From: Tricharina praecox
Taxonomy: Eukaryota
Direction of reading: 5' to 3'
Assembly: GCF_024521635.1 (NCBI RefSeq)
Contig: NW_026250432.1
Location: 372,001-436,000 of the forward strand
DNA: 64,000 bases
In this document: one piece after another, positions 904-28,108 of the stretch
Numbering within the stretch: the first letter of the stretch is position 1
Layout of the letters: each line of letters opens with the position of its first letter
Translations under genes and position numbers: made by a program
The notes under the pieces: model-generated
What the model was told of the DNA's origin: nothing
The model's database searches: none
Seen by the model: the letters and a program-made list of their open reading frames with translations, nothing else

Positions 904-1306
904 TCACATGAGCACAGCAACCGTAGGGAAACTCATGTCCTGGATGTACCTGATTTCCTCCTGCATTCCACAGCCCCATACGTTAGCGAACCACTCTACT
1001 TAGCGGTATCATGGGTGCTGTTGCGGGCGCCCCGCCGACAGTTACTTACGTCGGTCAGCAGCTGGGGAATATCGAGTTCGAAAATTCCGTTTACGGCCTA
1101 AGACGGTACGGTCAGCCGAACCAGGCACATTTCAGGATCCCCCGTAGTATCCACCCCCAGACGGAGCCCATCATCAACCGCTTAACTCGTGATCACTGGT
1201 CACTCACCCTGGGCCGTGTGTAACAGTTTACCCCAAATAGCTCGTTCAGGCGTTTCTCCAACACGCTGAGCTTGAGATATTTCGCTGTTATAATCTGCCT
1301 CGGCAT
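904..1306 (-). CDS. 67-aa three-exon microprotein, copy A
   Basis: Exons 1306-1208, 1097-1050, 960-904 with GTGAGT..CTGAC..TAG and GTAAGT..CTAAC..CAG introns. Product MPRQIITAKYLKLSVLEKRLNELFGVNCYTRPR/AVNGIFELDIPQLLTD/EEIRYIQDMSFPTVAVLM*. Same intron phases and exon 2/3 lengths as the paralog at 27698. Confidence 0.85.
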
Positions 1307-2795
1307 TGTTTTCCGTGTTGATAGGGGGTATGTACGTTCGGTTCGGAGGTGGGTTGTGGTTAACCGGTAATTTGAGATCACAGGTGGAGAAAGAGTAAAA
1401 GAAACACCTTTCTCCTCAGGCTATATACTATCTACCATATCAGTGAAGCACAACTTTTTTTAAGGCAGCATCACCATCCCCACCACCATGCGCAGGCAGT
1501 TCCGCCAATCAGCGGAGCGAGATCACAGCCGGGGCCCAGACAAACGGACAGACGGACGCAATCTCCATGGTCCCCTACGGTGCCAGGATTCACATTTCGC
1601 GTGCGCACGCACTACTCTGCATTCTGCACTCTGGAAGGTGCGCACCCCGACACCGCTCCAGCGCAGCAGGGTGGCATCCCCCGTATCTACATACAATATA
1701 TTTTTATATAGGTAGTCCGATAATCGGAGAAAAAAAGGGAATATCATATGTACAAACAGACCTACGTACGAAAGGACTGGCTGCGGCCTGGATACCCCGG
1801 CACTGAGGCTGATTGATTGGTTGGTTGGGAAATCACCTTCGGTGCCTACCTTATAGTGGTATCTACATGCTAACTGACTATACCTACCACACCTACTCTT
1901 TGGCCAGGCCAGGCAGCCGCTCAAAGTTCACAACATCGTCCTCCCCACGCAACGTGCGCGAGCCCAGCTTCCCCTGCCCGATCAAGATGGCCAGTGATGG
2001 CTGCCGCAAGGCTTGTTGCTCGGGAAATATGGGCTACCTAGGTAGTTAGATGTGGAACGATCCTGGAGTAGGCGGCTAGGGCGGGTTGGAGTTGAAGGCA
2101 CAAAAGATGGACACGCCACACAACTAGATTATTTTAATAGTAGGGGGCATGTGCTCTACATCATAGTTACCACCAGCTCAGGTTCCTCCAAAGACGTACA
2201 TACAGAAACTTTGAAATCCTCGGATGCTGAGACTTACGCTGGTCTCTGAAGTACATACAAAAAATTCCAGATGTCTCATCCGACTCGAGTAATCTATATG
2301 TGCTTGTCTGCATACATGTACTGAGCCCGTGTGTCTCTCACGTGATATATCTAATAATTAGAGTATTTGTCTCGCAGCTTCCAATGAGAGGAGCGATATG
2401 TAGGATACCTAGATAGGGGATGAGATTATAAGCGACGGACGAGATAAGATAAGGAGGAGTGGCTAGCCGGATCGGGTGGCGCTGAACGTTGTAGGCAACG
2501 GTGGAGAGCCATACAACATGGTTCTTCGAAGTTGAATAGAACCTCGACTTCTCCATCATTCATTTTCGCCGTTCGCTCTACCGGGCTCCCTAATTTGGGT
2601 AACTACATCTTATTCGTACATTGTACGGTGAATTCTTCGTAGCTGATAACTACTCGAGAGAGTAGACCACAGACAGACGATCACGAAGAACTTCCGATCC
2701 ATCTTGTAACTACTGAGTTCATATCTGAATCGGTTGTGGTATCTACTATATCTATTAACTATTACAACAGAGCTCTCCGGCCGGTACGGTTTCCA

Positions 2796-5313
2796 TTACG
2801 CTCCTTGTACCGGTATTGCCACCATCTCCACTTCCAATGCCGTTTGCGTTGGTGGCTCCTCGAACCCCCACAGGGTTTTTTGTACCTTTGGGCGAACCTG
2901 CAGTCTTTCGAGGATGCCCAATATACCACCGTCGCCGATCTGCACGGGCGGAGGTGAGCGATTTTTCGGTAGGATGCAACGGGAGGGATGTAATTATGGT
3001 TACGCTGATCATGTGCTTACCTTTTGGTACGTCACCATTCTGGTCTGGCCACGGTATTTCTCTGGGAAGGGATCGTTCGGATCCTCGGGCTTGATCTGGA
3101 AGGCTACTCCGACTATTCTCTGCAGCCAGTTGGGCAGCGGATCCGAGACCTGTGCTGCGTGGTCCGTCGTTCTCGCCGTGCTCGGTGTGGTGCCGGCGTT
3201 GTCGACGATGACGATGCCGCTCGGATCGGGCGCGGAAGTTTGGATCTCTCGGCGCGCTTCTAGGTCCCCTATAGTTTCGGCTAATGGTCTTTGGAAGGGG
3301 TTTTCCAATGGCCACAGAGCAAGTGCCCATATCATCCCCAGCGCCATTGTCCCGAACGCGATCGTCGGCTGCAGCCACATGCCCGAAGGCGTACCCTCAG
3401 ATTGTTGGCTCGGTATCATGGTGAGGACTATGATTCCCACGTTTACGATCACGATGGAGGCCGTTACGGACACCACTACGAACCGATTCATCAGCGGGAA
3501 GGATCGTTGCTTGACGGTCCAGTATAGCGATCCGCAGATTATGGCTATGGGTGATGGCTGTCAGTGGATGCACTTTGGATCGATGTCGATGAACGCGGTC
3601 ACTCACCAACGACTAAAGTACGGCCGTATGTATACAACCGCAGAGCGATGGTCGACCTGCCCTCCGTGTACGGCGTCGCGACGACGATTATCCCTATGGT
3701 ACATACGACCCAGTGCACCAGGTACGCACCGGATCTGGTCGGAGAGCTGAACGTCGACTCGTGACAGAGGATCTTCCAGATGGGAATCAGCTTCTGCATT
3801 CCGATTTCTCTGCCGACTATACCATCGACGCCGTCAGCTTTTAGTTCTGAGGTATGCAGATATAAGGATGTAAGATGACGTGGGAACGAACCTTGGGAGT
3901 ATGCATATGTACTCGCGAGTATGTTTCCAACCGGTGAAAGCGAGAAGAAAGCCGCAGCTATAGCCTTGCCCCGTGGGCTATTCATCATCTACAAGGCATC
4001 ATCAGCACGATCGACTGCAGCCGCGCGTCGAACATTCTTGCTATACCTACCGCGGTTAATCCTTCGTCGCCTACGACCTTATCGAACGGTAGGGCCACCA
4101 TCTGCAGGGAGCAGTGGTAGTCAGCATCAACTACGCTCAAAGATCTCGCCATTCGCGGGGCCGTCTACATACCACTGCTATGTTGACCATCATGTATAGG
4201 ATCGTAACGAGTAGTATCGCCATCAAACCCCCAAACTTGAGGGCCCTTCCGGAAGATTCGACCTCCCCCACCACCTATGGTTCGCTTAGTCGGCGTTCCC
4301 GTCCACTCATCGTCCTCCTCCTCCTGCTCTGCCCAAAGGATGCGTACATACGTAAAATGGGATCTCCCATCCCTGGTAGCTGAACAACACCACGAAGAGC
4401 GCGGATATAGGCTTTGATCCCTTAGTGTGTAGCGTCCACTCATTCTCCGCGAGCCGCCAGCGATACCCTATGATGGAGATCGCCAACAGCAGTATGACCT
4501 TGTAGATGGCAAACAGTCTGTTGAAGCGGAGACCCATCCATTTATGTCGGTAGAGGACGAGAGTCACCGCGGTGACGACGGTCACCGCAACCCCCTTCAC
4601 TGCGTGCGGGTTCAGGTCGTGCGGATCCGTCGTGTGCGGATTGCACGCCTGCAGGACGTACTTGGCGAAGCCGAAGGAGTTCGGGTACGCCGTGCCGAGA
4701 GTCAGCTGGTACACCGAGTACGCCAGCCCAGGCAGGTATTGCAGCCGTGGAAGGCGTCTAAATATTCGATCGATCTTTCGAGCGAGGGCGTCAGTAAATA
4801 AATACATACATACGTACGTACATACGGTGAATCTCCCCGCCACCGAGAGTAAAAGGTGGGGGAATTTACATATAGCAGCTCCCCTCCATTGAAAGGCCAC
4901 GCGTTCCCATACTCAACATAAATCGAGAAACTTGCCCGCGCATCAATCAGCAAATGCGAACGCCCGCCCGTCGGATGAGACTCCTCGAGCGGAGGTGGGG
5001 AGCGGGTGAGAACCAACCACAAACATGAAAATAACCCGCCAATGAACCACATGCCCAGAGCCAGCCACTGGCTTCCGCAGAACCACAGCACGAGCGAGGG
5101 GTTGGTGAAGATGCCCACGCCCACCATGCGGTTGATCATGAGGGCGGCGACATCGTAGCGTGTCAGGACTCGGGGGAGCTCTGTCCTCGGCGCGGGATTG
5201 TCGACAGTGACGTGCGCTCGGTCCTTGGTCCGTTGGGTAATGCCGGTCGGGATTTCGCCGTTCAGGTTTCCGTCTTCGGTAGACCGTTCCACAGGTGGGC
5301 TCGGGCCCGACAT
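2796..5313 (-). CDS. APC-superfamily amino-acid permease (Mup1/LAT-like), copy A, ~9 exons, apparently intact
   Basis: ATG 5313, TAA 2796-2798. TM1-type motif MINRMVGVGIFTNP, YVEYG..WPFNGGE, TM6-type SYQGWE, LSPVGNI and many hydrophobic segments. Splices in frame with canonical introns. Confidence 0.85.
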
Positions 5314-7681
5314 CGCACGCCAATCGGAGTAGAGGCTCCAGCCGAGAACAGGAGCGCGAGCGGTGAGGATGCAACTACTGCAGGAATGGGGTCGGTGGGC
5401 GAGGAGGCAGTGGAGAGACGAATGGGATGGGGAGAAAATAGATGGGGAGAAAATAGATGGGGGAGCAAGATATACTAGGTACGAGGTATATACAGAAGAG
5501 CCAAACATCGATACGTGGAGATAGTAGAACTACCTATAGTACTATGGAGTCAGCACATTGATTCTCGACTGCCGACCTACCTTGTACCTGGCAGGCTGCC
5601 ATGCACTCTATTCACAATCATTGCAAGAAGACAACGCTAGAGATTATCCAGCTTTCCCGCATTGCACCTCAGTCCACTGCCCATTCCTCCTGTTTCATTT
5701 TTGTCTGTGATCGCATGCCGCGCTCCTCGTTGTGGGCCATACTATCCGCCCCTCTACGTCCAGCCATTCGCGGCTACGGTCTCGCTTCGTCAAGAGACCA
5801 ACTAACCAATCAAGCCCATGCAGCGCGTGGTCAAACATCGCCTTGGTTTACTACTGTATAGTACTCAAGTAGTGCCGCCACCTCAGCTGTGCCTAGCCGG
5901 TGTGGATGGACGGTATCCGGCGGTGATCGATAGTTACCCACGAGTCTGTATGAAGTACGGTATGTACAGATGAAACTTTATGGGAATTGCTGCACCGTGT
6001 TGCCGAGAGCAATACGGTAACGGTGTAGCGGAGAGGATGACTGACTCGCCAGGCGCGAGTCGAGATGAGTCGAAGCTTTGGGGGGGAACCCGTTCCAGCG
6101 CATTTCGTGGCGAGACCACTGTGCTCAGCCTGGCCATGTATGTAGTGCGCGCAATGCGTGATGGTAGGTGCGCACTCGAAACGTGCGCGCTGCGCACGAA
6201 TAACTACTGCAGTTCGTCCGGACATTAATTAAGGGTCAAGACATGAAGAAAGTGAATAAATGCGGAAGGTGCGATAATCCTGGACAACTTAGTATGCACA
6301 AGAGGGGCGTTTATTCGTTAATTTTTGATTGTTGAGCTAACTGGATTGGGGATTGTTGACTTCCCACGCAGTTCCACTCTGGGACTGGTCACCGGTCCAC
6401 CGGTATAGCCCCAGCAGCTATTTCTGGATACATAGGAGGTTTTTTTTCCCTTTTTTTCCCCTTAATCGTTGGTTGTATGCAGCTCCTAGATAGGAGGCAG
6501 AAGGCAGGCTCCCTCACCCCTAACATGGACCGCACGTTTCAGAGCGAGTGAGATCTTGTCATTACGGTAATGCTCTGCCGCTTCGGCTGCAGACGTGATG
6601 GAGGAGCAAACGGAGCAGACAGAGCTGACCGATGCGAGAGTTGTGCCCCCTACAGCGGTGAGGCTGATGCCCCTCTATCTAACGATTTATCTTCCGCAGC
6701 AACCTCTTCGCACTGCGCAGAGTGACTGGTAGACGTGCGGTGAAAGCACGCTAGGTATGACTTATCTCATACGAGGATACTGCTAGTGGTTCACCAACGA
6801 TGGATACACCGCCCTCAGCCTTGTCGGCAGTTTATCCGGAGAGACGATGGTGTGCTACACGTGGATATGTATGCGGGTTAGCCACTTAGTTACCACGCCC
6901 AACGAGTCCAGCCCGCGCTGGCTGCGAATCTCAAGAAATGCCCGGCACAGCCCCTCTCCTATCGCCGGGAAGTACCAGGATCTGACATCTAGATTCAGGC
7001 GATGGAACGAAGCGAAGTACATACCAACCTAAAGCACAAAGGCGATAGGTGGGAGGCCCCCCGGGTGTTTAGTGTTCGGTCTTCGGAGGGCTGCTTACAA
7101 ATTTCAATGTGCGAGATCTCCGGATTTTAGTCTTCAGAGATAGGTTCTGGGTGTAGTTGAGTCTCGAGAGTCGGCCCTGGGTACTTACTAGGCACCTAGG
7201 TATCTATGTGAAGTAGCAGTGAGGAGGTGAACATTCGCGCCACTTTCGTCGAAGCCGGGGTTGTGCGCCACTACTACCTAGTAGCCTGTGAGAGGCTGGA
7301 TCACATGGGTCACTATGAGTCACTCGTCTCACTTCAGCATGCTACAAAGAATCGGTAGGTACTCTAGTAAATGTCTGCACCAAATGGAACTACTAGTAAC
7401 TACAGTAACCAAGTACTCCCAGAAGTCCTATGCGAAAGAACAGCCCCATACCTATCCATGCCCAAACATCAAATGTTCAACTCAGAGAACACATAAGCAA
7501 CGAAGTGGGCATACATAGCAATATTCCTCGTATCTAGTCCGCTGCGGCACGACCAGTTCTTCACTGGAGCCTTCTATTCATCTTGCCCAATGCGCCGTGT
7601 ATGCCAACTATATATTATATTTCCAGTTCCGGGCCCGCAGGCGCAATAATCCTACACTCGTCCTCGCCCGCTATCTTCCCC

Positions 7682-10001
7682 TTAGCTGGTGCTTATCATG
7701 GGCTGGCTGGTGCCAGGCCTTGGGGGAGTGGCTCCATCGGTATCTGCGCATTCTCCGCGGCGGAGGGGCGGCGGCGGCTGCGCTCCCCTTGGCCCTCCCA
7801 GCAGACCCGACAGCCACTGCAGAAAGTTGAGCTCCCGGAGGTATCTCAACAGACCACCTTCGCCGACCTGCCACGATGTGAGTGAAAAATCTTGGGTGGG
7901 ATGCCAGATACAATGATACAAATGGGTAGTATCATACCTGTATGTACGTTGCCATTCTCGTCTGTCCACAGTGCTCGCCCGAATTGTTGCAGCCCCTGAT
8001 CTGTAGTGCTACGCCGAGAGTTTTCTGCACGAAATTGCAATCATCTCCGGTCAAAGGAATGGCAGCGTGCTCCGCAGCCCTCGGCGCGGCTGCGTCCGCG
8101 GCACCAACAACGTCGGCGTCATTCTCCGATTGCGCTTCGCTGTCCGAGGGCTTTTGCGACTTCTCCGACGGCCATAGACATAGTCCCCACAGGGTTCCGA
8201 GGCCCATCAGGCCGAATGCGACTGCCGGGCGAGCCCATGTCTTGCCTGACGGGTTGTCGTCGCGCGGAATCGGGTACGAGTTGATGATCAGTACGCCGAT
8301 GTTCACCGAGGATATAAGGATTGCCGCAAGCCACCACAGCCATCGCGAACGACCCCACTCCTTCTCGAACACGCCCCACGGCAGCGCCACGGCGAGAATC
8401 ACTGCGATTATGCATGCATGTCAGCGTAGTGCACTGCAGTGCGAGTCGCGGCACTGGGTGGTCCCACCGATGATGAAAGTACGCCCATAGTTGTAGATCG
8501 TCAACCCGATCGAGAACGTGAATTGTTTGTAGTGCGGAGTGGCAACGGCGACGATCGAGGTGATGCATGCGATCCAGTGCACCAGGTAGGCACCGGAGTT
8601 GGTGCGATCGCTGAACTTCGACTGGTGCGCGAGGATCTGCCAGAACGGAAACAGTTTCTGGTCACCAATCATTTTGCCAACTTCCATACTACCAGTCAGT
8701 CGTGTGGTACTACCAGTCAGTCGTGTGGAGCTCCGGTTGGATGATGGGACAATGTCAAAGCATAAGGGAAACACACTAACCACAGCCGTACGCATATATG
8801 CTCGCGAGCATGTTCCCAACCGGTGAGAGCGAGATGAGAAACGTTACCGCTGCCGCCGCTTGGAGGTTGGTGATCATCTGTCCGGATCAGCGGACTGACC
8901 GTTTCTGCCTTGGATCGACGTACATACCGCGCCTACTCCTTCACCATCAACCAGGGCCTGATAGGGTAGAACTACCATCTGGAAGCAACGCGTGGTGAGC
9001 ATAGGATTAGTGATCCGTTGGAGGCACGTAAATACCAGTGCTATGTTGGCCATCATGTATAACGCCGTGACGGTCGCGATCGCAACGAATCCGCCCTCTC
9101 TGACGATGTTCTTGGATGAATGACCTCTGAGCTCGCCCAGGACCTATGAGTAGTAGTTAGTACATGGTACGATTAGACTCCGAGATCGCCTCCCTCCTCC
9201 TCCTCCCTCGGGACTCCCTCGGGAGAGCGTACATACATAAAAGGGAATCTCCCAACCCTGGTACGCGTACACAACCGAGAAGAATCCGGAGGCGACTCTC
9301 CAGCCGTTGTGATGATGGTTCCACGTGATTCCACTATCGCTGTAGCCATAACCCACGATAGACCCAAAAAACACCAGCACGACTTTGTACACGGCAAATA
9401 AGCGATTAAGGCGGAGCGCGAGCCACTTGCATCGGTAGAGGATGAATGTCAACCCGGTGACGACGATCGCCGCGCTCACTTTGATACTTGATCGATCTGC
9501 GAGCGCAGTTATAGCGACGTCAGTACGGTCTTCCACCGGTCGGAACGGAATGGAATAGGTAGGTAGATGTCGGCAGAGTCACCGTACATATAGTATATCT
9601 CCTCCATTATATGGCCACGTCGTTCCGTACTCAACGTAAACACAGAAACTAAACCAGCACGGTCGTCAGAAATGCCGAGTGAGGAGTAATGATTATGTAC
9701 AGGGGTGACGGGAGGGGGGCGGGCGAACCAACCACAAAAGGGAAAAGAGTCCGCCAGCAAACCACACCCACAGAGCCAAATGCTGGTTCCCGCAGAACCA
9801 AAGTACGGCTGGAGGGTTGGTGAAGATCCCGACGCCTATCATGCGGTTGATCATGAGGCTCGCCACGTCGAACCGTGTGAGATATCAGGTTGGAATGTTC
9901 GGTTCGGACCCACGCTCGCTCGCAGTGGTGGGTGCCACCGAAGCTTGCTGACTGGGCTGTGCTCCGGAGTAAACTGGTTGTGGCGGGGTTTCCGCCGATA
10001 T
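7682..10001 (-). pseudogene. Amino-acid permease pseudogene, copy B
   Basis: Same motifs (MINRMIGVGIFTNP, AYQGWEIPFY, LSPVGNMLAS). Lesions: ATA at the probable start position (10001), in-frame TGA at 9885-9887, and a frameshifting deletion of roughly 50 codons near 9485 removing the GTAYPN segment seen in the paralogs. Confidence 0.82.
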
Positions 10002-11650
10002 ATTGTCAGGAGACAAAAGTAAAGACATGCCGGGCCAATAGGGCGGGCAAAGTAGAAAAGATCGGTGAAGGCAGCAGTCACGGGAGTAATAAACAATACG
10101 GTTGGACGAAAAGCGGCGGAGGAGAAGGATTGAACTTATAAGTTATAACAAGTGAATATTTACGCATAGCTAGCCATTTCGCATGCATGTCGAAACGTGA
10201 GGATAGACACTTCAGTGTATGCTTAGCGAGAAGTGGGGCTGACCGTGTCAATTGACTAATTCTCTGCCTACAGCCTGATTCAGGGGTTTTTGTATATCCT
10301 CGTTGTCTACAATTCAAGATACATAGGTGTAGAGAGCAAAGTCCTCACTCGGTCCAGACTCCAGACGGGCTGCAGAGTGCAGTATGGAATAATACCAACC
10401 TGATGAAATCCTTAACCTGATGAAATCCTGAACCTGAGGAATCCGGACTGACAGCCTGACATCCCATCCCGTCCCATACTCAGCCGTAATTGCTTTTTGT
10501 GACTGACGTGGACACCGAGCGGTCCCTCCGTGAAAAGTGCATGACCGTGCTTCTGGCAGGCTCATGGAGTGCGTACCGGAAGGCCAGCAAGACCATTGGT
10601 TCGCTCCCACTATGTATCGCTCCTCCTCGGTGGTAGGTGTGTGGCTGAAGCCCCAAGAGCTACACAAATTGGCCTGCTGAAACCTGAAGGCGCGGCCATG
10701 CAGATGGGCGGCTAGCTGGATCCGACCTTTCCCCTCCCGAAAACAAAGTCAGTGGTCACCAACACTCACTAGCGTTTCAGTTTCGGGACCTACGAGGGTA
10801 CTGTGAATTATCCTTGCGTTCAGGCGCTCGTTGGCCGCAGTGCGCAGCGCTCTGTCCAGAACAATGTCTCTTGCATGTGTGGTACCTATTAAGCGCATCT
10901 TCCAACTTGGAAGCGAACGGACATCAGACAGTTCCAGTGGAGGCTAACTCAGCCTCTTCTGAGATCTCGCTGGCAGACATCTGGTCAATAGGCAGTGGCT
11001 GGTAAAGGTACGGTACTCTACTCGAGAGTTTGATCAGCTACATTCACCCTGGCCCCACATACTGCCAGCTATGTGTAAAAGAAAAGCCAAGAAGAATAAA
11101 GGCATGGATTGACGTCAGTCAGTCAGGCTGTGCTGTGCGCAGTGCGCATGCCGCACGGCACCAGTAAGGTATTTCAAAATTCCTACCCACATGTTAGTGA
11201 GGGCCAAGCTCCGTCTCGTCTCATATTCGCGATCGCCGAGCTGACGGTACGATAGGGTGCCGAATCTTGCAATATTCGTGCACAGGGGGGTATTTGTCTG
11301 CACGGGTCGACTGCGCACGCCTGATCGCCGTCCAAAGCGCCCCTGTGCAAACAAAATACAAGTTGATGAGCCACGGAGAACGTGTCGATGGGACACGGCG
11401 CGCGAGGCATAACCTGCTCCCTCGAGGATGACATAATTGGTGGATGCACATTCTTTCGTGTGCGCACTCCCAACTTCGCATGGGGATACCCCAAAACCGG
11501 TGATTCCGAGGATTATATAGAGTAGTGGGTATACCGTAGCCGGGGATTAGGCTTGGATATCATTCTTCCCTTCTTCTCCATCAGCACCTATCATACCGAA
11601 AGAACACATAACTCACAGAACACGCCCCCGCCCCCCGGGACGTAATCGCG

Positions 11651-12075
11651 ATGACCAAGCAAACCTTGAAGGCGAAATATGTCCAGATCAGTGTGCTAGG
11701 TAGTTACTCTAGAGGAGCATCTGCAGATCGATGCTGTTTGCGCCAGGAACCTGCTCGCGGCCGAGGGTGAGCGGTCACTGTGAGCGTGTAATTTCAGCCC
11801 CGGCTGTGGAGTTACATACTCTACCGCAGCACGCGGTAGAGTACGGCATGCGCCTGGCATGCCTGACCGTTTCCAGGCTATAAATAGAAGTGTTGCGTTG
11901 AACGTTCCTGGGTGGCTGACCGACGGGAGTGGAGTGCTACTCTGGAGTCTAAAGGCCGACTCGCGGGCGTAAAGTACTTGGTAATTAGGTGATTAACACG
12001 CAATGCCTTGGAAAGCAGGACCAGTCAAACTGTCAAAGAGATCCACAGTCGCAATTATGTAAGGCAAAGTGGGCA
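11651..12075 (+). pseudogene. Microprotein pseudogene, copy B
   Basis: MTKQTLKAKYVQISVL..EEHLQ..MLFAPGTCSRPR|GTGAGC; exon 2 AINRSVALNVPGWLTD (11877-11924). Lesions: 13-nt and 4-nt insertions in exon 1, second donor mutated to GGGAGT, degenerate exon 3 from 12019 (end coordinate inferred from paralog length). Confidence 0.75.
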
Positions 12076-12384: not shown

Positions 12385-12386
12385 CC

Positions 12387-14306
12387 ATGTCATCATTTAC
12401 AGCCAACCCCTACCGCCACAATGCCGTCGAGTCCGACTCCCGGCTTGCCGATAGTGCTGCTCGGCTCTTCTCATATACCGATTCAGTGCGCGCAATACAC
12501 TGCGACGGCGGGTATAGTGAGTGACAATCATCCACGCGTATTCTCTAGCCTTTCTACGTGCTTACACACATTTTCAGAGGAGACACTACAATCGCTACCC
12601 GCGATCGAGGAATACGTGCAGGTATGTTTGCATCAGTCCCGGGCCTGACCGGCTGCGATTAGCTGACAAGTTCTGCTGCGTTAGAAATTCTCCGCCTTCG
12701 CAGGAACCCGCATCATGTACGTCCACCCGGCTGCCAAGTTGGCAACCACCAAGCTGCTGTGAACAATGACCTAACAGCCGCGACAGCATCATCCCGCAGC
12801 GGTTCTCGTGGGGCGAGCTAATGGTCTCGGAAGCCAGTCTCCGCACGCTGCTGCAGGGACTGGGAGTTTTCGGCGAGTTCTCGGACCTGATCCGGGCATT
12901 CGGCGCGAAGACATCGCCCGTCGACGAGACGTACGCTGTGCGTCCGATCTTCCAGAAGGAGGCGTCGGGTTCTTTCCGTAAGTAAAAAGCGCACCTTCCC
13001 TGCGATTGCTAGAGACGAGGCTGACGCGGTGTTGCTGCAGGTCTCTGCTACCTCGCAAAACACGTCGAGCAGAATAATAAGCTGCCCAAGCAGCAAGTGG
13101 ACATCTACTCCGTACGGCAGATGGCCGTCTACCACGGCTACGACGCACAGAACGACGCACACACGTTCGTGCTGGTGAATCCGTCCACCACGTTCCAGAT
13201 GCACTGGCTACAGGCGCAAAAGAGCGATCCGCAAGGGATGGGCTGGATGGATTTCCACGTGGCGGTGGCGTATGCCATGTCCTGTCGCTGGCGGGAATAT
13301 GTCAACCACCTCGAAGACAAGTTCGACAAGACTGTAACCACCCCTGGTCGGCCTCATACCCCGTATACAAGCTCTAACCATTACAACAGCACGACAAATC
13401 ACTCACCGGTCCGAGCGACGACGACCACGTCGCCTTCGCGGACATCCAGAACCTGCAAATTCTCAAAGACAAAGTCCTGCACCTCGAGCACGTGCTCCGG
13501 CTGAACCTCGGCGTATTCCAAGAGCTGCAGAGCCTTCTGCAGACAATATCCGCGCCGGAGCGCGCACTCACCGCGTGTCCCTCTCCCGCCGGCGCAAACC
13601 TCAAGATCGCAAATCTCTTCTCCCGATACCTGTCGGAAACCGCAGTCGCCGGGCAGCGCGCTGAGCACCTCATGAAACGCATCGATGGTGCGTCCACGAT
13701 GGTATGCCATCATCCATGCCCACTGCTTAATTCTCACTCCCACTCCGCTCAAGAAACTGATCTGTCATCCAGTTTCGTACAATCCTAGACTTCACGGCCA
13801 TGCAGAGCGCCCGCCACGAGAGCGAATCAATGCTGGTCCTGTCGCAGAAAGGACAACGCGACAGCAGGACGATGAAGAATATAACGCTCCTGGCGCTTGT
13901 GTTCCTTCCAGCTACATTCGTCGCAGTACGCAACCCCCTCCCCGCCCTCCTTTTAAGTACACACAGCTCATGCGACATACAGACGATCCTTTCGATGAAG
14001 TACATAAGCAGCACCCCCGGCGGCGGTCTCCACCTCGCAAACGAGATGTGGATATTCCTGATACTGACACTGCTGTTGTTGGGAGTGACGCTGGGGTACT
14101 GGAAGTGCTGGGAGCATCGGCAGGTAGTTTCGACGGATACAGAACAGCAGCGGGAGAGCGGGGGGGATAAGGGAGAAGGGGAAGTGGAAATGGGAGGGCG
14201 ACTATATGGTACAGTCGGCGGTATCGGAGGGAAGTGGTATGATAGGTATAGAAGTGCGAGGGCGAAGGTATCGTGTAGTCAGCGATGCCGGAGGGAGATG
14301 GTATGA
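12387..14306 (+). CDS. CorA-like membrane protein, copy B, 8 exons, apparently intact
   Basis: ATG 12387; splices in frame to TGA 14304-14306. Contains YSVRQMAVYHGYD, WMDFHVAV..WREYVNHLE, a helical stalk, then DSRTMKNITLLALVFLPATFVA/TILSM..MWIFLILTLLLLGVTLGYW, the two C-terminal TM helices typical of fungal CorA-like proteins. Confidence 0.85.
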
Positions 14307-17800: not shown

Positions 17801-18571
17801 AGAACTACAGTGGAGTACTATATATATTCGGGTGCATGATTTGCTTACCGAATCCCCGAACTGGGGGTGCTCATATCCTCGATAGATCTGGAAGGAATAA
17901 ACTGTGCCGTAGCCGCCTTCTCCGATAAATTGAGTGTTGATGAACGGGAGAGCCCTCTTCGAATCCCAATGGTTAAACCACCGACCTTTGAAGATGGGTG
18001 GCGCGAACTGATGTCGACGCCCCAAGAATACTTCGAGAAGATTATCGACTGCTGCGGGAGGTAATCCGAATCCAGCCTCGATCTCCTTGAGATAGGTATC
18101 CTTCAGGCGCTCCATATCCAGTCTTTCGTCCAGGAGCGCGTCGCCGCGACCTACAAAGGCTCCGATGAGGGCTGGCAAACCGACATAGACGAGTAGAGCA
18201 AACAATCTCAAGGCATCGGACATTATAAACTCGAGGTAAGTGGCCCGTCTCTCGTATCTCCTTTGGAGGATGTACCTTTCATGCTTATCGCACCAGGCAC
18301 AAGGACATCCCAGAGTGGATTCAACCTGCTTTCTGCTCAAGACGCCCTGGATTGCGTCGAGTGGAAAGAACACTGGCTCATATTCGGACGCCGAATCGAC
18401 ATGCCCTACCTTCTTCAACTTTGCTAATCTAGTGAAATCAAGCTCCTCTTTGAGTGGTGTCGAACGACAGTGGGTCGCGCTATTGGAGGGATTCGCTGGT
18501 ATTCGGGTAGACTAAGATGGTAGCGCTAGTAGCATGTCCGAATGTCTAGTATCTGCCTTGGTGTCGGACAT
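14879..18571 (-). pseudogene. Multidomain Ser/Thr protein kinase pseudogene, copy B
   Basis: GEGGYG, AMKEV, YHADIK/PTNILV, DFG and DDWAMAC; colinear with the kinase at 30411-34135. In-frame TAGs at 18512-18514, 17095-17097 and 16864-16866, plus a +2 frameshift near 17580. Confidence 0.85.
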
Positions 18572-21500
18572 GGTAGGTACGGCTCATTCGGAACTTGACA
18601 AGACTGCGGTGGTGATTGTGTCAATGACGATTGTGGTGTAGGTAGTATTCGAAGATTTCACTTGAGCGCCGTATCGATACGTATCGTGGAGGAGGCGGGG
18701 GTCGCGGGATCCGGAGCCTGAGCTGAAAGCAGCAGAGTGTTTTCGAGGTCAGAAAGCGCGTTTCTCGTGGATCTCATCCGGCTGTAGCTCCGAAGACGGT
18801 TGTTGATCATGGGGGGTAAAGGTATATCGTCGAGGAGTCGTTTGGTCGCGGTGGGCAAACGTGATAGTAGCGAGGTGATGGTCCATCTGTACGCTGGGCC
18901 TTTGGGCGTATGACATAAGGTAGGTGCGCTAGGTTTCACCGACTTTCCGATGGACCATTCAGCCTCGAGTCCGAGTAGGTATGTAGCACTCGAATGGCCG
19001 GTGGTGGAAGCCCACGCATCGATCGGTTCTAGTGGTATCGGTCGTTCGCAGTCCCCTGGTGGGGGGGGGGGGGGGGGGGCTTGCCGGCCAACCGTAGAGT
19101 AGATAGCTCACCAGGGCAGACAGTTGCACCAATCTCAGCTTAGACTTCCATGCGCTGCGCACGAACACACGGTACTCCGCAGTGACCACATGCATCGTTA
19201 CGTTTGTGTGTAGTCAGTGGCGTCAGGCTACACTTCTCGGTACATCCCGTGTAGAGTCATAAGTGAGTACGGAGGCTGCGACAAGGTTATGGAGATCCCC
19301 TCTTACCCTCTTCACTCACAACTACGGTATTCAGGTCTACGCAAAGACAGCTATCAGCACGTGTCTGCCCAGGAATCCGGCACGTGACGTGTAGCCACAG
19401 TGGCGCTATGTGGTGGCTACAACCCATATCTACAGGTGATCAAAGCTTATCTGTGTTGCTTGACGGTGCGGCGGCTTGGCTTTCCAGGTTTGCACCTCTG
19501 CTTAGTCGACATCGCCTTTGAAGAATCACACATCGCTGCGTGCGCTCAGAGAGTGTCACGCGGCTGTAATGCCGACCATCTCAATCTGCCCCCGCCTCAC
19601 CCGCACCCCATTCACCGCCCACCGGATTTTGGCGGTCACATAGTGGGCGGCGACGGGAGCCTGGGCAACCTTGGAGAGGAATTTGATCTTGGGGTAGACC
19701 GGTCACCGATAGCCCAGTCCTGACTCCTTGAGATTTGTGTTCTCGTCGGAGTCCATTCCATACATCAATCAGGATATTGTTCAGTGCGCCACGACGAACC
19801 ACAGCGTACGATGGTTGATTGCCACGATGTGACGAGGCTCGCAGTTGTTTACGGCTGCGTGGCTTTGCGAAAATTAGGTAACCAAGTGGCTCATAATTTG
19901 CCGCCCCTCTGCTCAGTACATACGGAAAACACAGCTACACAAGCGTTCCCCTCATACATGCCCGAGATCGCACACTGGAGACCTGTTTACCGGTAAGCCG
20001 GAGTGACAATCTGAGACCGAAGATAGGGTACTCACCCCTGCATTAGTGCTAATACATACTCGAAGTACCCTAGTAGCGAAGCTCGTAGGCCTGTGATCAG
20101 CGCAGGAATTAATAGAGTACCTAGTAATTCATCACGATTCATAGTAGTCAGCGTATGCGCAGATGTGACACCATTTTCTTCCACGGATACGTCCGTCACC
20201 GACCGGCTTGGTTGCGCACACCTAGTGCATCCACTTCTCATATCTACCCGACGAGAAGGAATGCAATCCAAGCTAATTTAACTGCATTTACTCTTAGCAA
20301 CTACATCTAACTCGTATCTACGTGTCATGAAAATATCGAAGCATTTCCTCGACTCGAAAACATGCTGTTTTTTTGGTGTTCGCTGTCTCGCTCTGATGAT
20401 CTGAGATTCTGAGCGTTCCAAGCAGCCACGGATATATCATATCACTCGTCGGATCATTGAGATTTCCGAATCACAGCTCACGCAGTGTGACTGACTAAGT
20501 AGGTACCGGTAACTGGGATCGATCCAATCCCGTCAACAGCCCCAGGGCCAGAGCTACCGTACGTTTCACCATAACTGCTCCGACCGTTGTTTCCGTGCTT
20601 ACACATGTCTTCCCCTAGGTGGGGAGGTTTTAGAAGGAGCATGATGGAGGTTTCTGAAATCAAGAAAGTGGCGTCCGGCCAAGAAGCAGTGCAAAAATAC
20701 GGAAAGTGAAACCCCAAGGTGTGTGGGAGCGGACCTATGATAAGCACACTGCACGCAGCGGTCTGTCCACACTAACTCTTTTGAAGTAGATACCGGTAGT
20801 AGTACATTCCTAAATCTCATTGTTCAATGACGACGAACAACTTGTAGGTATCCATCATGATATCCAGGCGGGGTTGTTAGATGTACGTGCGTGCTAGTTA
20901 CTCTAGAGTACCTACGGTAACTCGTAGACTGCCGGGCCCCTCAGACGTCTCTAGAGATAAAGTTCCAGGTATTTTATAGTTCTTCCCGCCCGTGCTGTAC
21001 ATACCGGCAACTACTCCACCAACCTATCTACTATTACTTACTTCGGTACCTATCAGCGACCCGAAACCGGGGACGGGATCCAATCGGGCGGCGCTACCGA
21101 AAGGGTTGCGTACTAGGACATGGTGTCCCGCGTCTGCGGGCTGGAAGCGATTACAGGACGATTATTGTTTGCACCTATTGCAGCGTTTATAGGCTCGGTA
21201 TTCCCTTGCTTGGGAATGGAGGGTGTGGGAGCACAGTCGGCCCCGCCCCGCTGTCAACCAACTTTCAAATCGCGGTGGTTCAGTTTAGTTATCTATCACC
21301 CAGAACCCTGTTCTGATCCCGAAGGGCCCAGTCCGTATGTAGCGAACATGAATATCTGCGTTCGTCTTGCTATGCATGGTGGCAGGTGCGCATGGAGACA
21401 TGTCTCACTTCAGCATCTTGGCGCCTATCATTGGGTAAGCAAGTCTCGAGTACTCTTCATTCTCTACATGTCTGCGCTATTCTCAGGTGTCACCGTAGTC

Positions 21501-21827
21501 AGTGTCTGCGGCCCGCGAACTCGATGTTCAAGGAGGGAAGGAGTGAGTACCTTCAGGCCCAGGGCCAATGGGCGCATCGTTTCTCGCCACACAGGTCTTG
21601 GAGCGGAGGGGGAGAAGTGGGAGGCGGGAGAGGGTCTTAAAATGCGGAAAACAGTATGTTAAGAGGGGGCTCCGTGTTATTGTTTCTCATATCCTTCGAG
21701 CCTTCTATCCCATCTCTGTGCTCTGGATCCGATTTTTCCTTCATACCGATCCTATTTTATTTTTCATCGACTACCTCCGACTCCTCGCCCGTGTTCCTGG
21801 CCCGCAACTCTTCACAGTTTGACCAAG

Positions 21828-24290
21828 ATGTCCGACGAAGCCGCTCAGCAGCCTAGGAGAGGAGACCTTGAAACTGGGCCGCTGCCTCCAGGACCGCGGT
21901 GGCAAGACCCAATCGAATCAGGGATAAACAAACACGGCACGAACGATTCTCTTGAGGACATCGAGGACCCGAAATTAACACCATTCGACGTTGGGAGCTT
22001 CATGATCAATCGCATGATCGGTGTCGGAATTTTCACCAACCCTCCGCTCGTACTATGGTTCTGTGGAAATCAGCACCTGGCCCTCTGGGTGTGGTTCGCT
22101 GGAGGGCTGTTTTCTCTCATGTGGTTGGTTTGCCTGCTCGGCCCTCACCCCCGCCTCTGGGCCTCTCCCGTATATATCACTCGGCTTTCTGACGATCGTT
22201 AAGCTTCTGCGTGTACGTTGAGTACGGCGCCGCGTGGCATTACAACGGCGGGGAGCTACTATACGTATGCTTGTTGCATCATGACTGCTAGTGGACGTGT
22301 GTACCATATTGACTTCCGAGTTCATAGCTCGACCGGATATTCCGTTCGAAACGGATCAAGCGGCTTCGATACCTGCCCCCTCTGGCATTCTCGTTCTCCA
22401 TGATCCTTATCGGGACTGCATACCCAAACGCGTTCGGATTCGCGAAGCATATCCTCATATCCTTCAATCCGCACATCAAGGACCCGTACCAGCTCGACCA
22501 GCACGCGGTCAAGGGAGTCGCCGTGGCTGTCGTTACGGCGGTGACGCTCATCCTCTACCGAAACAAATGGCTAGCCATCCGCATGAATAGACTGTTTGCT
22601 GTGTATAAAGTTGGATTGCTCTTTGGGTTGTCCATAGTGGGATACGCTCACCGCCACGAGGGGGTCACATGGTCGCAACCATTCAACGGATCAAAATTCA
22701 TTTCCGGCTTCTTCGTGGTCATGTTCAGTTACCAGGGATGGGAGATCCCCTTCTATGTACGCAAACCTTCTTTGAAGAGATGGGGGGGATGAAACATCGT
22801 CTAACCCAGCCACAGGTCTTGGGCGAGCTCGCCGAAGACCGCTCGTGCAAGAAGATGCTCAGGATCGGCGGCATCTCTGCGATCGTGGCCGTCACGATGT
22901 TGTACATGATGGTCAACGTAGCAGTGGTATGTACCAGTACACAGAGCAAACTCGCGCGAGGAAGATGGACGCCGCTGACCACAGCCCTGCTACTCCCAGA
23001 TGGTGGTTTTACCGTTCGAGACGCTCGTGGGTGGTGAAGGATTGGCCGCAGTGGGTATATCGAGCACAGTAGTGGCGGGGCCAGCCAGCTAAACACGGGA
23101 CAGATAACCGAAAAGCCATGGGCCACATCCACGGCGGCGTTCCTCGTCTCGCTCTCACCGGTCGGAAACATAATCGCGAGCACCTATGTGTACGCCCGTG
23201 GTAGGTGCATTCGAGCGTCCCAGCCACCGGCTGCAAAAACTCCCCCGAATGAGACTGATTGATTCGGAACGAAAGTCTGCCAGATAATCGGGGAACAGAA
23301 GCTGGTTCCCTTCTGGAAGATCCTCCAGCGCAGGTCGAAATTCGAGCCCAAGACCAGCTCCGGTGGTTACCTGGTGCACTGGATCACATGCACTGCCGCG
23401 ATCGTCGCAGTCGCTACGCCGCACTATAAGGCCTCCAGCTCCTCCATCGGCATGCCGGTTTACGTCTATGCGCGTGCTCTGATCGTCGGTGAGTTGCACA
23501 TACATATATACCGTGACCTCAACGCTCACTGAAACCCGGCGCCCTAGCCATCATTGCCGGAGCTCTGTTGTACACAGTCAAGATAGACACGCGCATCTGG
23601 ATGTGGAGATTTTTGACGGGCGTGGTAGTGCTCGTGAACATCGCCGTGATGGTTATCACCATGATCCCGAGCCAGCAAGACAAGGACGCGCCGCTGCGGA
23701 TGTGGTTGCAGCCCGTAGTCGGGCTCGGCACGATGGGCCTCGGAATCCTGTGGGGCGTGCTTCTCTGGCCGCTGGAAAAGCCGCCACCCCCCGTTTCGGG
23801 AGACAATGGGGTGCGCGCCAACACTGCCAGTCCCGACGACACAATGCGCACCGCCAACGTCACGCCACGGAGCGAGGTCACCCAGATCACCGAGGTCAAA
23901 GTCCAGGACTTCGTGGTCCCGGAACCGTTGTTGAAGAGCGAAGAATACAACATGCTGCAGAAGCTACTCGGCTTCGCACTCGTGATCGAGCACGAGCCCC
24001 CGGAAGGCTGGCCGAGTGAAGAAAACAATCAGGGTAGAGGTAATCGTCCTCTCGCGGAACAAAAAGACGACCAGGCGAAAACAAAGGACAAGCACATGGG
24101 ACAGCCGAGGGTGGTGACTTACGTAAAGGTATACCTACCTCGACCTATCCCAAATCTCTCCAGAGTTCTCCGTTGGCTCACTCAGTGATAGGTTAGAAAC
24201 GGCGGGCTGTTGGGATTCCTCAGAGGCCTCACACCTCCGGAGTGGGTACGAAAATACCTGTGGCCCAATAAGGAGCGGCTGGCGGCCTAA
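21828..24290 (+). CDS. APC-superfamily amino-acid permease (Mup1/LAT-like), copy C, ~9 exons, apparently intact
   Basis: ATG 21828, TAA 24288-24290. MINRMIGVGIFTNP, GTAYPNAFGFAK, SYQGWEIPFY, LSPVGNIIAS. Same intron positions as copy A. Confidence 0.87.
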
Positions 24291-24415
24291 GTAGAATGGC
24301 CTCGCTCGCTCACGGGCTCGATTCAATCTAGGTTGAGATAATCGGTATATAGGCACTATGGCGGGAATGCCAGATGATGGCTCTCCTTAGCTAGTAAAGA
24401 TGAAGTATGTACCTA

Positions 24416-25037
24416 CAGTAGCAAAAAGTGGGGTGCGATTACTACCTAAAAAATACCGCGGTCATTTTAATACCGAAGAACTACCAGGTTTTTACTAAGG
24501 GCCCGTTTGGATGGCCTCAGTTTTAGCGAAAACTGTCAGTTTTTCGAGAAAATGAGCAAACAAAACTGAGACCCCGTTTGCATGGCACAAAAACTTTTTT
24601 TAAAAAAAAACTGAAACTGTGCGGCTCCAGCGACGAAACTGGTGCTAACCTCGAGAGGTCATTTCTTTGCCGCCACTCAGTATCGAATTTTAACTTCAAC
24701 CATGGACTCCCTTTACGGGAAGAGAAAAAAGCGGGACTACAATGTGTCCACTACATATTAAAGTTCTGGCGAAACCTATTATTCAGACTCATGGCTGAGT
24801 ATACTGAAAATTGCCAAACACTCTGTTCATCTCACAGTTCTCCGGAAACTGAAACTGTACAGTATTCGGTGTCCCGGCGGGGAACTGAATTTCGCTCTAA
24901 AACTGGAACTGAAAACTGAGGCCATCCAAACGGGCCTTGACCCGTAGTTTTGGTTAAGTAAAAACCTGGTAGTTCTTCGGTATTCAAATGACCGCGGTAT
25001 TCACCCCGTATCAATCGCACCCTACTTTTTGCTACTG
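24416..25037. mobile_element. Tc1/mariner/pogo-like MITE with ~80-bp TIRs, interrupted by a second MITE
   Basis: TA|CAGTAGCAAAAAGT...ACTTTTTGCTACTG|TA. Long imperfect inverted repeats; a second copy lies at 42185-42343. Confidence 0.85.
24499..24937. mobile_element. PIF/Harbinger (Tourist)-like MITE, copy 1, nested
   Basis: TIRs GGGCCCGTTTGGATGGCCTCAGTTTT / AAAACTGAGGCCATCCAAACGGGCCT, flanked by TAA and TGA (imperfect TSD). No transposase ORF. Confidence 0.85.
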
Positions 25038-25703
25038 TATGTAGATAGAGAATACAATACCCACACTCCCAGCTGCCGCACAATTGTCGACTACGTTCGA
25101 GCGTGAGTATTCACCATGTTCGGTGGATGAACTTTGTGTCAACCGTCGACTCGCTAGCTCGTACGCAACAGCGAACCACCTCCTTGGAGAGCTGCAAGCT
25201 GCAAGTCTGCAAGCTGCGAAACATGCATCGTAGTGTATAGTATACCGTACACGTCAACCGAAGATAATGGGGAACCCCGACAATGGTCGGGGGGGCATTC
25301 TACTAGTACCGTATTGTGCGGCATTGATTCGAAGTATGTACACGGGTGTTCTCTCCACGCAAGGTCTGTATCTAAGTACTACTCTACCTAGGCCAAACGT
25401 TTTTGCCCAGAGGCCATTTTACACCAAAATACCCATTTTCACGTAACCAAAACCCACCCTTCACTTGGCGGGAAAAAATCAGGTGTTTCATAGAAGCTTT
25501 GAAACTGCAAGAACTATCACCTACCTATAAGAAGTCTGATGGCTTTTGCTTCGGAATGGTGGCGCACTGTATGGTGTTGTGGACGGGTTGGAAAGTGATT
25601 TCAGATTTTGTATGGGGCCCTCATACAAAATTATTGCGTGACAACCAGTGTCAACGCCTACCTACTTTTCTCCCATATGGTATTACTCAACCACAACGAG
25701 TTA

Positions 25704-26033
25704 GGTCCCGTTTGGATGGCCTCAGTTTTAGCGAAAACTGAAACTGTGCCGCTTCGGCGATTTTTCTTCGCCACCGCCCAGTACCGCATTTTAACTTCAA
25801 CCATGGACTCCCTTTAGGGGGAAGACAAAAAGTGGGGCTACAATGTGTCTACTATTAAAGTTCTGGTGAAGCCTATTATTCAGACCTATGGCAGAGCATA
25901 CTGAGAACTACCAAATACCCTGTTCACCTCAAGGTTTTCCGGAAACTGAAACTGAACGTATTCGGTGTCCCGGCGGGGAACTTAATTTGGCTCTAAAACT
26001 GGAACTAAAAAGTGAGTGCATCCAAACGGACCC
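25704..26033. mobile_element. PIF/Harbinger (Tourist)-like MITE, copy 2
   Basis: TTA|GGTCCCGTTTGGATG...CATCCAAACGGACCC|TTA with a perfect TTA target duplication. Internally homologous to 24499-24937 but shorter. Confidence 0.88.
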
Positions 26034-27697
26034 TTAGAGTTATTTGCCGATTTCAATTAAAGTTCTCGACCTAGTCTGGGAGACCTTTTAATGGCCCAAA
26101 TATTTTTATACTATCATACGGTTGCTGTATCCATGGCTGGAAATGACCTGTCTTGGTGAAAGAGAAATCCGCTCAGCCACCCTGCTTCGCATAAAATAAT
26201 CAGCCTAGCGGGCTGGAAATCTCATTAAAGCTTTATTAATATATACCTACATACCTAGATAGGTACCTACCTATGTATTCATGATGTATGCCAATTATTA
26301 GCACTTTCTAAAGTGTGGTTGTTGAGATTTGTGGGTGTAATTGTCTAGTTGTACATACCCGGGTGAGCAAAAACTTTTGACCTGGTACTTACCATACGCG
26401 ATCCCACACAATGTTCGCGCGAGCCCAGTTCCCCGCCCACCGCACGATCACCGCCACCGACCGTCAGGAAAGCGGGCCTGCTGGGTGCCGGGTAGATTGG
26501 CAGAGCACTGTCGCAACGAGTGATTGATTCCGTTGTGGCGCTTTGACGTTGAAGTTGAAGACCTGAGGCGTGGGACACGAACTCCCCCCCACAAGTGAAT
26601 CATTATCCTCATCATCGCTCACTCACTCACTCACTCGTATTCTTCAATCGATCGGGCTAAGAGACTGGATTGCCGCATTGTGCTCAGCGCTCGAGGGCCA
26701 AGGTCTGCAGCGGATGGAACATCAGTAGAGTGCTTTCTGAAACATAACCACTGGTCAGCGACACTGCTTCAACCATTTACCTATTAATTTTCCTCTACCG
26801 CGGTTTCCTACCTAGTTTCCGATCCGTACAGGAGCCAGAAGACAGCTCAGTCTTGTGCACATGTTCGCGATGCGATGCTCGAGAATTGTTTCGTTTGGGC
26901 TCCGTTTGGTTGGTTGGTTGGAAGTCCGAAGTCACCCCATCGGTTGGCTGCGAAGCCCTAGAGCCCTCGTATTGCCACTCACATTTCACGAGAGCTCCAC
27001 TTGAGACGTGTATGTAGTCTCATTCGTGCCCCGTCGGATGGTACCTAGGTAAGTATGTATGTGTGTACGGCGTGATTCTTGATCTGCGGCACTGCCTGCC
27101 TGCCCGCCTTGGTGCACTAGCTATTAGTTCCCGTCGCGATTGCAGTCCGTTCATACATAGAGTATGTGTCGCCTGTTCGTTGTTTTGTTTTTTTATTATT
27201 TGCTTTGTTGTCTTTAAGGACCGTTGAATGGCCGGCTTGGTGATAACTACCCTTGACGCACGAAAGCGGGGTCCAATAGGCAGTTACCTAGATACTGCAG
27301 TTCGCATTGTGCTTGTGCTTGTGCATGTGCTTGTGCTTGTGCCTTTAGAAGCATCGATAATTCTTCTGAGCCATCCACTCAGCTTCGCCGACTTTGGAAG
27401 CACACTCCGTTTTCTAATTGTCCAGCCCGGAGTCCAACTCATGATTCTGCGCACGCACATTCAGAGCTGCGAGTCCGTGGGAGGCCTTCGCCCTGATCGT
27501 AGAGAAACCCAGCAGCTCACAGTGTATCACGGAATATATAGCCCACGGGAAGAGAAATTGGGGGGCAGCACTTCGAATTCCTTCTGTTCTAATTCTCACC
27601 ATCACCACCACTGCGACTCGCTCGTACTTTGTGGAATACGAACACACCCACACCCACACATACACACCCGTCGACACTGCCCGGCCACACGGAAACC

Positions 27698-28108
27698 ATG
27701 ATCCAGCAGACGTTGAAAGCTACGTACATCAAGGTCAGCGTGTTGAAAGCGCAGTTGGAGGTGATATTTGGGCCAGGCATTACGGTTCCGCGGGTGAGTA
27801 CATACTAAGTGTTTTCATAACCAGTTTATGTTTCAGCTCCGCCTACTACGTACTGGGCGCGCAGGCGGGCAGGTGGGCGGGCGAAGTTGTTTGTTAGCTG
27901 ACAATCTTTAGGCCATCAACGGAATGTTCGAGCTGAATATCCCATCCCCATTGTCGAAGGTAAGAACAGTGCCAAAGGACGGGCGAGTGCGAGTGAGAGT
28001 GTGCGCACAGAGTATTGACAGATGCTAACGCACAAGGTATTGGCGATTTAGGATCAAGTCCAGAAGATTCAAGATATCAGCTATCCTCCGGAACCTTCGT
28101 ACATGTGA
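27698..28108 (+). CDS. 66-aa three-exon microprotein, copy C
   Basis: Exons 27698-27793, 27912-27959, 28052-28108: MIQQTLKATYIKVSVLKAQLEVIFGPGITVPR/AINGMFELNIPSPLSK/DQVQKIQDISYPPEPSYM*. Canonical splice sites; TATATAG about 160 bp upstream. Confidence 0.87.

Follow-up and report, generated by a model that had tools for sequence, protein, structure and literature searches.

A 64,000-nucleotide stretch of the genome of the pezizomycete fungus Tricharina praecox (contig NW_026250432.1, positions 372,001 to 436,000), here called the window and numbered from its first letter, encodes a family of microproteins of 66-67 amino acids, each assembled from three short exons. Leaving aside the question of a binding partner, we consider it likely that this is a real, transcribed and selected protein family of restricted taxonomic distribution, which was triplicated in this fungus and has a small alpha/beta fold. 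Two copies (A and C) are intact and a third (B) is a pseudogene; two further fungal-like genomes have retained the same arrangement of exons and introns. As the proteins carry no catalytic or metal-binding signature, they would most likely act by binding another protein.

Gene structure, transcripts and public records

Spliced translation of copies A and C agrees with the original prediction, made from the nucleotide sequence alone, of three-exon products of 66-67 amino acids with phase-0 introns and second and third exons of 48 and 57 nt (coordinates in Table 1). The exons of copy A measure 99, 48 and 57 nt and its introns 110 and 89 nt; in copy C the exons are 96, 48 and 57 nt long and the introns 118 and 92 nt, and all four introns are in phase 0. 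Their donors read GTGAGT, GTAAGT or GTAAGA, with branch-like CTGAC or CTAAC motifs and YAG acceptors, and judged by these signals they are typical of filamentous-ascomycete introns. The two proteins are identical at 28 of 61 aligned positions (57.8 bits, BLASTP).

In RNA, copy C has lost both of its expected introns. Contigs of two sequencing runs from two studies, X1 and X2, were placed on window positions 10000-29999; the runs carry the label 'RNA?', a guess from the run listing, and the many GT..AG and CT..AC joints in their contigs identify these as spliced RNA. Joints 27792/27911 (cut +1, skipping 118 nt, GT..AG) and 27957/28050 (cut +2, skipping 92 nt, GT..AG) are present in both runs and match the predicted introns exactly. 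The contig that holds them has a word depth of 1960 in X1 and 647 in X2, while the joints of the neighbouring CorA-like gene C (28512/28582 onward) are on another contig with a depth of 10.7 in X1 and 343 in X2, contig depth being a poor measure of expression according to the tool's own warning. Because the RNA contigs of the two genes are separate, copy C appears to be transcribed on its own, apart from CorA-like C, although contigs cannot reveal transcript ends. The bin containing most of copy B (11334-12000) has no contig cover in X1 or X2, which is not counted as evidence of silence.

The family had been described as hidden, which is true of some of its members. A search with the 42-aa stop-to-stop frame that surrounds the first exon of copy A led to one public protein only, P0001, a 67-aa entry named "hypothetical protein BZA05DRAFT_448412 [Tricharina praecox]" that is letter-for-letter identical to spliced copy A. 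The exon-1 frame of copy C had no candidate match in the word-indexed collection, searched over proteins of 22-72 aa, and full-length P0001, searched against the index over 36-118 aa, returned itself alone (one protein among two candidates). Copy C was also not present among 1.84 billion representatives searched with a HMMER profile built from the exons of A and C. Since copy A is already public the family is only partly hidden: copy A is annotated, and copy C and the metagenomic members described below appear to be unannotated in the collections searched.

The decayed third copy proposed to start at 11651 was recovered as well. It opens with an ATG, its first exon carries insertions of 13 and 4 nt, its second donor has GG where GT is expected, and its third exon contains deletions. 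The exon-1 remnant still matches the family hidden Markov model (HMM) with E=0.0017. On the strength of these lesions copy B is a pseudogene. The 13-nt insertion, at 11699-11711, has GT and AG at its two ends; it is far below the size of a fungal intron, and these ends are probably a coincidence. A fourth copy was sought in the window by tblastn and with an HMM of the four intact members against 2314 six-frame open reading frames (ORFs), and none was found; the family HMM matched copies A, B and C only, with E values from 5e-16 to 1e-6 for the exons of A and C.

A TATATAG motif was expected about 120-160 bp upstream of each copy and is found there in all three cases (Table 1). The window contains 13 such sites where 3.87 are expected, a number reached by 1 of 100 shuffles. 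The motif in front of copy A is a probable TATA box, and TATATAG followed by CC precedes both copy C and one of the metagenomic homologs (locus L005).

Relatives, selection and predicted fold

The HMMER search gave six matches at E<=0.001. One of them is P0001; the other five were judged spurious, being tandem-repeat proteins that were each matched in 4-10 stretches. When metagenome contigs were scanned with P0001 peptides, 439 pattern stretches came up, none of which was confirmed. Degenerate back-translation of the best-conserved exon-2 peptide, applied to metagenome contigs, led to five loci (L001-L005). Of these, L001 and L003 are chance matches without gene structure, and L002 and L004 represent one sequence from two samples. 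L002/L004 and L005 are clear homologs on fungal-like contigs and thus add two further members to the family. Both encode 67 amino acids, the last of them Met, in exons of 99, 48 and 57 nt, and a TATA motif precedes each by about 100-120 nt. Their two introns are in phase 0 and at the family positions, with lengths of 52 and 64 nt in L004 and of 75 and 73 nt in L005. Across the four intact members the exons therefore measure 99 (96 in copy C), 48 and 57 nt, the first introns 52-118 nt and the second introns 64-92 nt; 22 of 67 alignment columns are invariant and pairwise identity ranges from 44% to 69%. Among 21 ORFs from L004 and L005 that were compared with Pfam, none had a match over threshold, and the L005 contig stops at the microprotein stop codon. 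An Atlas feature search pointed to unnamed clusters from ascomycetes (75 aa, 0.88; 66 aa, 0.87; 78 aa, 0.81); all are below the 0.9 bar and serve as leads only, and a search of named Atlas clusters gave no usable match.

It had been argued that protein-level conservation combined with diverged introns indicates selection, and the comparison of the four intact members bears this out. The proportion of nonsynonymous differences (pN) is lower than that of synonymous differences (pS) in six of six pairs by the Nei-Gojobori method; for A and C pS is 0.62 and pN 0.34, which by our arithmetic on the counts corresponds to a two-proportion z of about 3.3. The ratio of nonsynonymous to synonymous substitution rates (dN/dS) is 0.18-0.35 in the five pairs with a computable dS, the value for A and C being 0.35; with dS at 0.8-1.8, near saturation, these ratios are rough. 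Aligned introns are 0.37-0.60 identical, against a shuffle baseline of 0.55-0.59, whereas exons reach 0.61-0.92. These sequence comparisons show purifying selection on the microprotein coding sequence.

The suggestion of a small alpha/beta protein agrees with the AlphaFold2 model, which was calculated from a shallow alignment (A1) and has moderate confidence (predicted local distance difference test score, pLDDT, 68.8; predicted template modelling score, pTM, 0.48). Its elements are the strands E4-8, E33-35 and E38-43, the helices H13-24 and H49-57 and a disordered tail of residues 60-67. The predicted fold is a single small beta-alpha-beta-beta-alpha sandwich that would belong to the ferredoxin-like or ACT-like class. 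Atlas holds its own model of P0001, with a pTM of 0.56, and lists as structural neighbours a 75-aa cluster, an 'RfeG' cluster and 852-aa kinases, all marked 'under the bar'. Literature listings on RfeG and on expansion of the fungal CorA-like gene family contained nothing that bears on the microproteins.

When the alignment is read against the model, the invariant residues are, in our reading, mostly core or helix-capping and the other positions are variable. The tail is short and hydrophobic and ends with Met in all members. We further read the N-terminal 16 residues as basic and devoid of acidic residues in four of four members; no signal peptide or membrane segment is apparent by eye in the microprotein. 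Copy C contains no Cys and copy A one, and no Cys column is conserved in the four members. Prediction of a P0001 homodimer scored 0.02 against a mark of 0.32, which is not evidence either way.

The duplicated block and possible partners

A self-comparison of the window (blastn) revealed three old paralogous blocks with permease, CorA-like and kinase genes at 64-76% identity, and Pfam detects amino-acid permease fragments in all three. The microprotein copies and their CorA-like neighbours thus arose jointly, as parts of a triplicated block of amino-acid permease, microprotein, CorA-like and protein kinase genes. The window contains exactly three CorA-like copies, which tblastn matched at 4-648 (minus), 12399-13943 (plus) and 28362-30076 (plus); each begins about 250-340 nt past a microprotein copy. 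In units A and C the spacers between microprotein stop and CorA-like start (649-903 and 28109-28361) place these two points only 254-256 nt apart, so that the CorA-like promoter or 5' leader must abut or overlap the microprotein 3' end.

Table 1. Positions of the microprotein copies, upstream motifs and neighbouring genes, in window numbering.
Feature	Position	Strand	Details
Microprotein copy A	904..1306	-	exons 1208-1306, 1050-1097, 904-960 (stop included); introns 1098-1207, 961-1049; 67 aa
Microprotein copy B, pseudogene	11651..12062	+	exon-1 remnant from 11651, exon-2 remnant 11874-11921, exon-3 remnant ~12019-12062
Microprotein copy C	27698..28108	+	exons 27698-27793, 27912-27959, 28052-28108 (stop included); introns 27794-27911, 27960-28051; 66 aa
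TATATAG	1421-1427	-	121 nt 5' of copy A ATG
TATATAG	11514-11520	+	137 nt 5' of copy B ATG
TATATAG	27535-27541	+	163 nt 5' of copy C ATG
CorA-like paralog A, 5' part only (cut by window start)	4..648	-	tblastn with spliced CorA-like C; begins 256 nt past copy A stop
CorA-like paralog B, looks intact	12399..14130	+	tblastn, 58-63% identity over four blocks; stops confined to presumed intron
CorA-like paralog C	28362..30310	+	six introns confirmed by RNA joints; begins 254 nt past copy C stop
Protein kinase gene, unit C	31185..34276	-	Pfam Pkinase E=6.2e-10 on 32406-33038, weak match 33056-34276; convergent with CorA-like C
Amino-acid permease, unit C	21117..24188	+	Pfam AA_permease_2; paralogs ~3668-5529 (minus), 8119-9881 (minus)

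The microprotein had been said to lie always upstream of the CorA-like gene. This is so in three of three window units, which owe their arrangement to one segmental triplication and are not independent cases. A homolog next to a CorA-like gene elsewhere was indeed found, in L004, the one independent contig with visible neighbours, with a different arrangement: the plus strand carries the CorA-like homolog at 468-2384, with aligned blocks of 44-63% identity, and the minus strand the microprotein at 3183-2864, so that the two genes are adjacent but convergent, with the microprotein downstream. The 468 nt before the CorA-like gene of L004 contain no second microprotein copy.

The label CorA-like also stands in part, as a resemblance. 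Pfam CorA matches single-exon translations of paralog B with 16.2 bits (E=0.0069) and of paralog C with 15.0 bits (E=0.016), against a cut-off of 27; the scan took single exons, and the whole protein might score higher. By eye, the spliced translation of paralog C has two hydrophobic stretches in its last ~90 residues. In members of the CorA family the first transmembrane helix ends with a Gly-Met-Asn (GMN) motif. The corresponding position reads SMG past a confirmed intron in paralog C, where it is followed by the second hydrophobic helix, and SMK past a presumed intron in paralog B. Lacking the GMN magnesium filter, the CorA-like protein, to judge from its sequence, is probably not a magnesium channel. 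CorA-like B is transcribed, with an RNA contig depth of 27-106 over 12001-14668.

For the adaptor, inhibitor or kinase substrate first suggested, the evidence that bears on it either way is gene neighbourhood. Our leading guess for the partner of the microprotein, though a tentative one, is the CorA-like membrane protein with two helices that is encoded next to it, and more precisely its cytosolic part. It is based on the co-duplication of the two genes, the spacer of about 255 nt in units A and C and the adjacency that is kept after inversion in L004. A more specific version, which we regard as unlikely, is a dedicated two-gene module of pezizomycetes in which the microprotein docks on the cytosolic domain of the GMN-less CorA-like protein and gates or neutralises its pore, with the convergent kinase controlling the pair. 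Docking would proceed via the open edge of the beta-sheet or via the conserved hydrophobic C-terminal tail ending in Met, and the abundant soluble microprotein would act like a channel regulator or an antidote. If true, such a module would explain the co-duplication, the very short spacer and the adjacency maintained after inversion.

Several points weigh against this account, both of the family and of its partner. No homolog of known function is available, nor has any relative of the family been described: P0001 matched no Pfam-A family in hmmscan at E up to 10, and a PDB profile search gave one match, with E=0.47. The structure model is of moderate confidence and its alignment holds two sequences' worth of information. 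Foldseek found no PDB match at E<=0.001, its weak neighbours being HMA domains and the CheA P2 domain, and the best VIA-align hit among 48,161 chains (Z 5.2; ferredoxin-like, ACT and RRM domains) is inside the stated background. Since dS is near saturation, the dN/dS values are rough. The reality of the gene has been seen at the level of RNA and sequence. As to the partner, the death of microprotein B beside a transcribed CorA-like B that looks intact weighs against obligate pairing; the relative orientation of the two genes differs in L004; and the adjacency in the window was inherited from one duplication, so that there are two independent observations at most.

The same facts suit a microprotein whose role is unrelated to the CorA-like, kinase or permease gene, such as a small protein of the cytosol or of mitochondria, specific to stress or to a certain stage, that is a passenger in a copied block whose gene order has not yet been scrambled. 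Three adjacencies from one triplication, a decayed copy B beside an intact and expressed CorA-like B, and an orientation that is not conserved in L004 are all as expected for a passenger. Contig depths of copy C and CorA-like C moreover differ by a factor of about 180 in X1 and of about 2 in X2, a difference that suggests separate control, within the limits of depth as a poor measure, and a basic N-terminus of 16 residues without acidic ones would, in our reading, also fit a targeting peptide. Less easily accommodated are the survival of the adjacency through an inversion in L004, where the CorA-like proteins have diverged to about 44-63% identity per aligned block, and the very short intergenic gap of 254-256 nt in units A and C. 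We give this explanation close to an even chance, which makes it at least as likely as any specific partner.

The large kinase two genes away offers another conceivable partner, with the microprotein as its substrate, adaptor or decoy. A kinase paralog is present in both units B and C (the unit B gene, at 17025-18459, is 71.7% identical in nucleotides to that of unit C), and the 852-aa ascomycete kinase cluster in Atlas, flagged 'under the bar', has a template modelling (TM) score of 0.67 by query. A TM score above 0.5 on a 60-residue sandwich means little, however, and the microprotein has no sequence similarity to any kinase ORF of the window, as the family HMM matched only its own three copies. 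In addition, no kinase homolog was detected by tblastx in the 6 kb of L004, and the conserved Ser residues are, as we read the model, at predicted helix N-caps. A link to the kinase is therefore very unlikely.

A reading in which the exons form the leader, or a regulatory upstream ORF, of the CorA-like transcript and the peptide itself is irrelevant would account for the strand shared with the CorA-like gene in all three window units and for the 254-256 nt from stop to ATG in A and C, and contigs that cannot reveal transcript ends leave room for it. It is hard to reconcile with an amino-acid sequence conserved to the point that pN is below pS in six of six pairs, with joints of the two genes on separate RNA contigs of differing depth in both runs, with a microprotein on the opposite strand past the CorA-like 3' end in L004, and with a public annotation of copy A as a stand-alone 67-aa protein; we find it scarcely credible. 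Chance reading frames and splice sites in duplicated intergenic DNA, that is an annotation artefact, can be dismissed, as the very short length of the genes and the failure of the nucleotide self-blastn to pair the copies are outweighed by spliced RNA, four intact members from three genomes that share their exon lengths and intron phases, introns at shuffle-level identity beside conserved exons, and HMM matches to the A and C exons at E 5e-16 to 1e-6 among 2314 ORFs.

What remains after this weighing is a taxonomically restricted, selected family, with the CorA-like protein as a tentative partner. As it stands, this is an ordinary lineage-restricted gene, and its possible tie to the CorA-like protein is modestly interesting. 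The case illustrates that a conserved, transcribed family of three-exon microproteins can stay almost invisible: collections of billions of proteins yielded one member, and copy C and both additional genomes were reached solely via RNA joints and a degenerate exon motif. The family is a concrete addition to fungal genome annotation, and if the CorA-like link is true it would be a first handle on the role of the expanded GMN-less CorA-like proteins of fungi.

Some further features of the window were recorded. In unit B the permease is oriented like permease A (minus), whereas microprotein B and CorA-like B are oriented as in unit C; from this mismatch it follows either that unit B contains an inversion with respect to units A and C, or that these two permeases form a tandem pair. 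Just 5' of the CorA-like B start, at 12262-12384, there is a 64-nt direct repeat with 89% identity. RNA contigs contain a joint at 15130/17231, a 2100-nt skip without GT..AG, and one at 29999/15073, which 'goes back 14927' and links units B and C; that the contig of one paralog was placed across both copies is more likely than a real trans-joined RNA. Short repeated segments, partly inverted and of 77-97% identity, are found at 24402-26032, between permease C and microprotein C, and again at about 42.2 kb (42183-42357); they look like dispersed repeat fragments or a transposable-element remnant, and RNA contigs with many differences pile up on the 24402-26032 region. The minus strand of 38684-41290 encodes a Mex67/NXF-type mRNA export factor with NXF_NTF2 (E=3.9e-36), TAP_C, leucine-rich repeat and weak RRM_9 matches. 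A 790-aa open frame on the plus strand at 52881-55253 has no Pfam family and contains an internal 72-nt direct repeat (53987-54138).

Comparison with known systems

Among known small alpha/beta proteins, the HMA/Atx1 metallochaperones (PF00403) are similar to the microprotein in size and in the order of secondary-structure elements, and HMA domains are among its weak structural neighbours (Foldseek E 0.5-2, TM 0.34-0.50; Atlas TM 0.54-0.62). The HMA fold is beta-alpha-beta-beta-alpha-beta; the moderate-confidence microprotein model (pLDDT 68.8) shows beta-alpha-beta-beta-alpha and a disordered tail, the last strand not being predicted. The defining metal-binding feature of HMA/Atx1 domains is a CxxC in the first loop. 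The microprotein has no Pfam HMA match at E up to 10 and no Cys pair, and on the latter ground a metallochaperone was rejected. The 4-oxalocrotonate tautomerase-like proteins use a catalytic N-terminal Pro that directly follows the initiator Met. Residue 2 is Pro in copy A only, Ile in copy C and Ala in L004 and L005, and there is no Pfam match, so that a tautomerase-like enzyme was rejected. Secreted fungal effectors and killer-toxin-like alpha/beta proteins possess an N-terminal signal peptide and disulfide-forming Cys residues. The N-termini of the microproteins are basic and polar and by eye have no hydrophobic h-region, and Cys is not conserved; a secreted effector was rejected on these grounds.

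For a protein that would act on a membrane transporter the closest parallel in concept is formed by MgtS and MgtR, bacterial membrane peptides of ~30 residues that regulate magnesium transporters. By analogy, a very small protein might act here on a neighbouring or co-regulated cation-transport protein. Unlike MgtS and MgtR, the microprotein is a soluble eukaryotic protein of 66-67 aa, and its neighbour lacks GMN.

The neighbour itself may be compared to the CorA/Mrs2/Alr1 family (PF01544). Like these proteins, it has two C-terminal hydrophobic helices after a long helical region; the sequence YLPATFVA before the loop in CorA-like C resembles the end of the first CorA transmembrane helix, and in two paralogs the weak Pfam matches cover the same portion of the profile. 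Unlike family members, it remains at 15-16 bits against a gathering cut-off of 27 and has SMG (C) or SMK (B) in place of GMN.

The microprotein genes are most similar to the taxonomically restricted orphan small-protein genes of filamentous fungi, which they resemble in being short, in having no Pfam family and in having one member deposited as a hypothetical protein. Like such genes the family is fast-evolving, and the duplicated block holds both paralogs and a pseudogene. Unlike many of them, it combines splicing and purifying selection with a gene structure that is conserved in three genomes.

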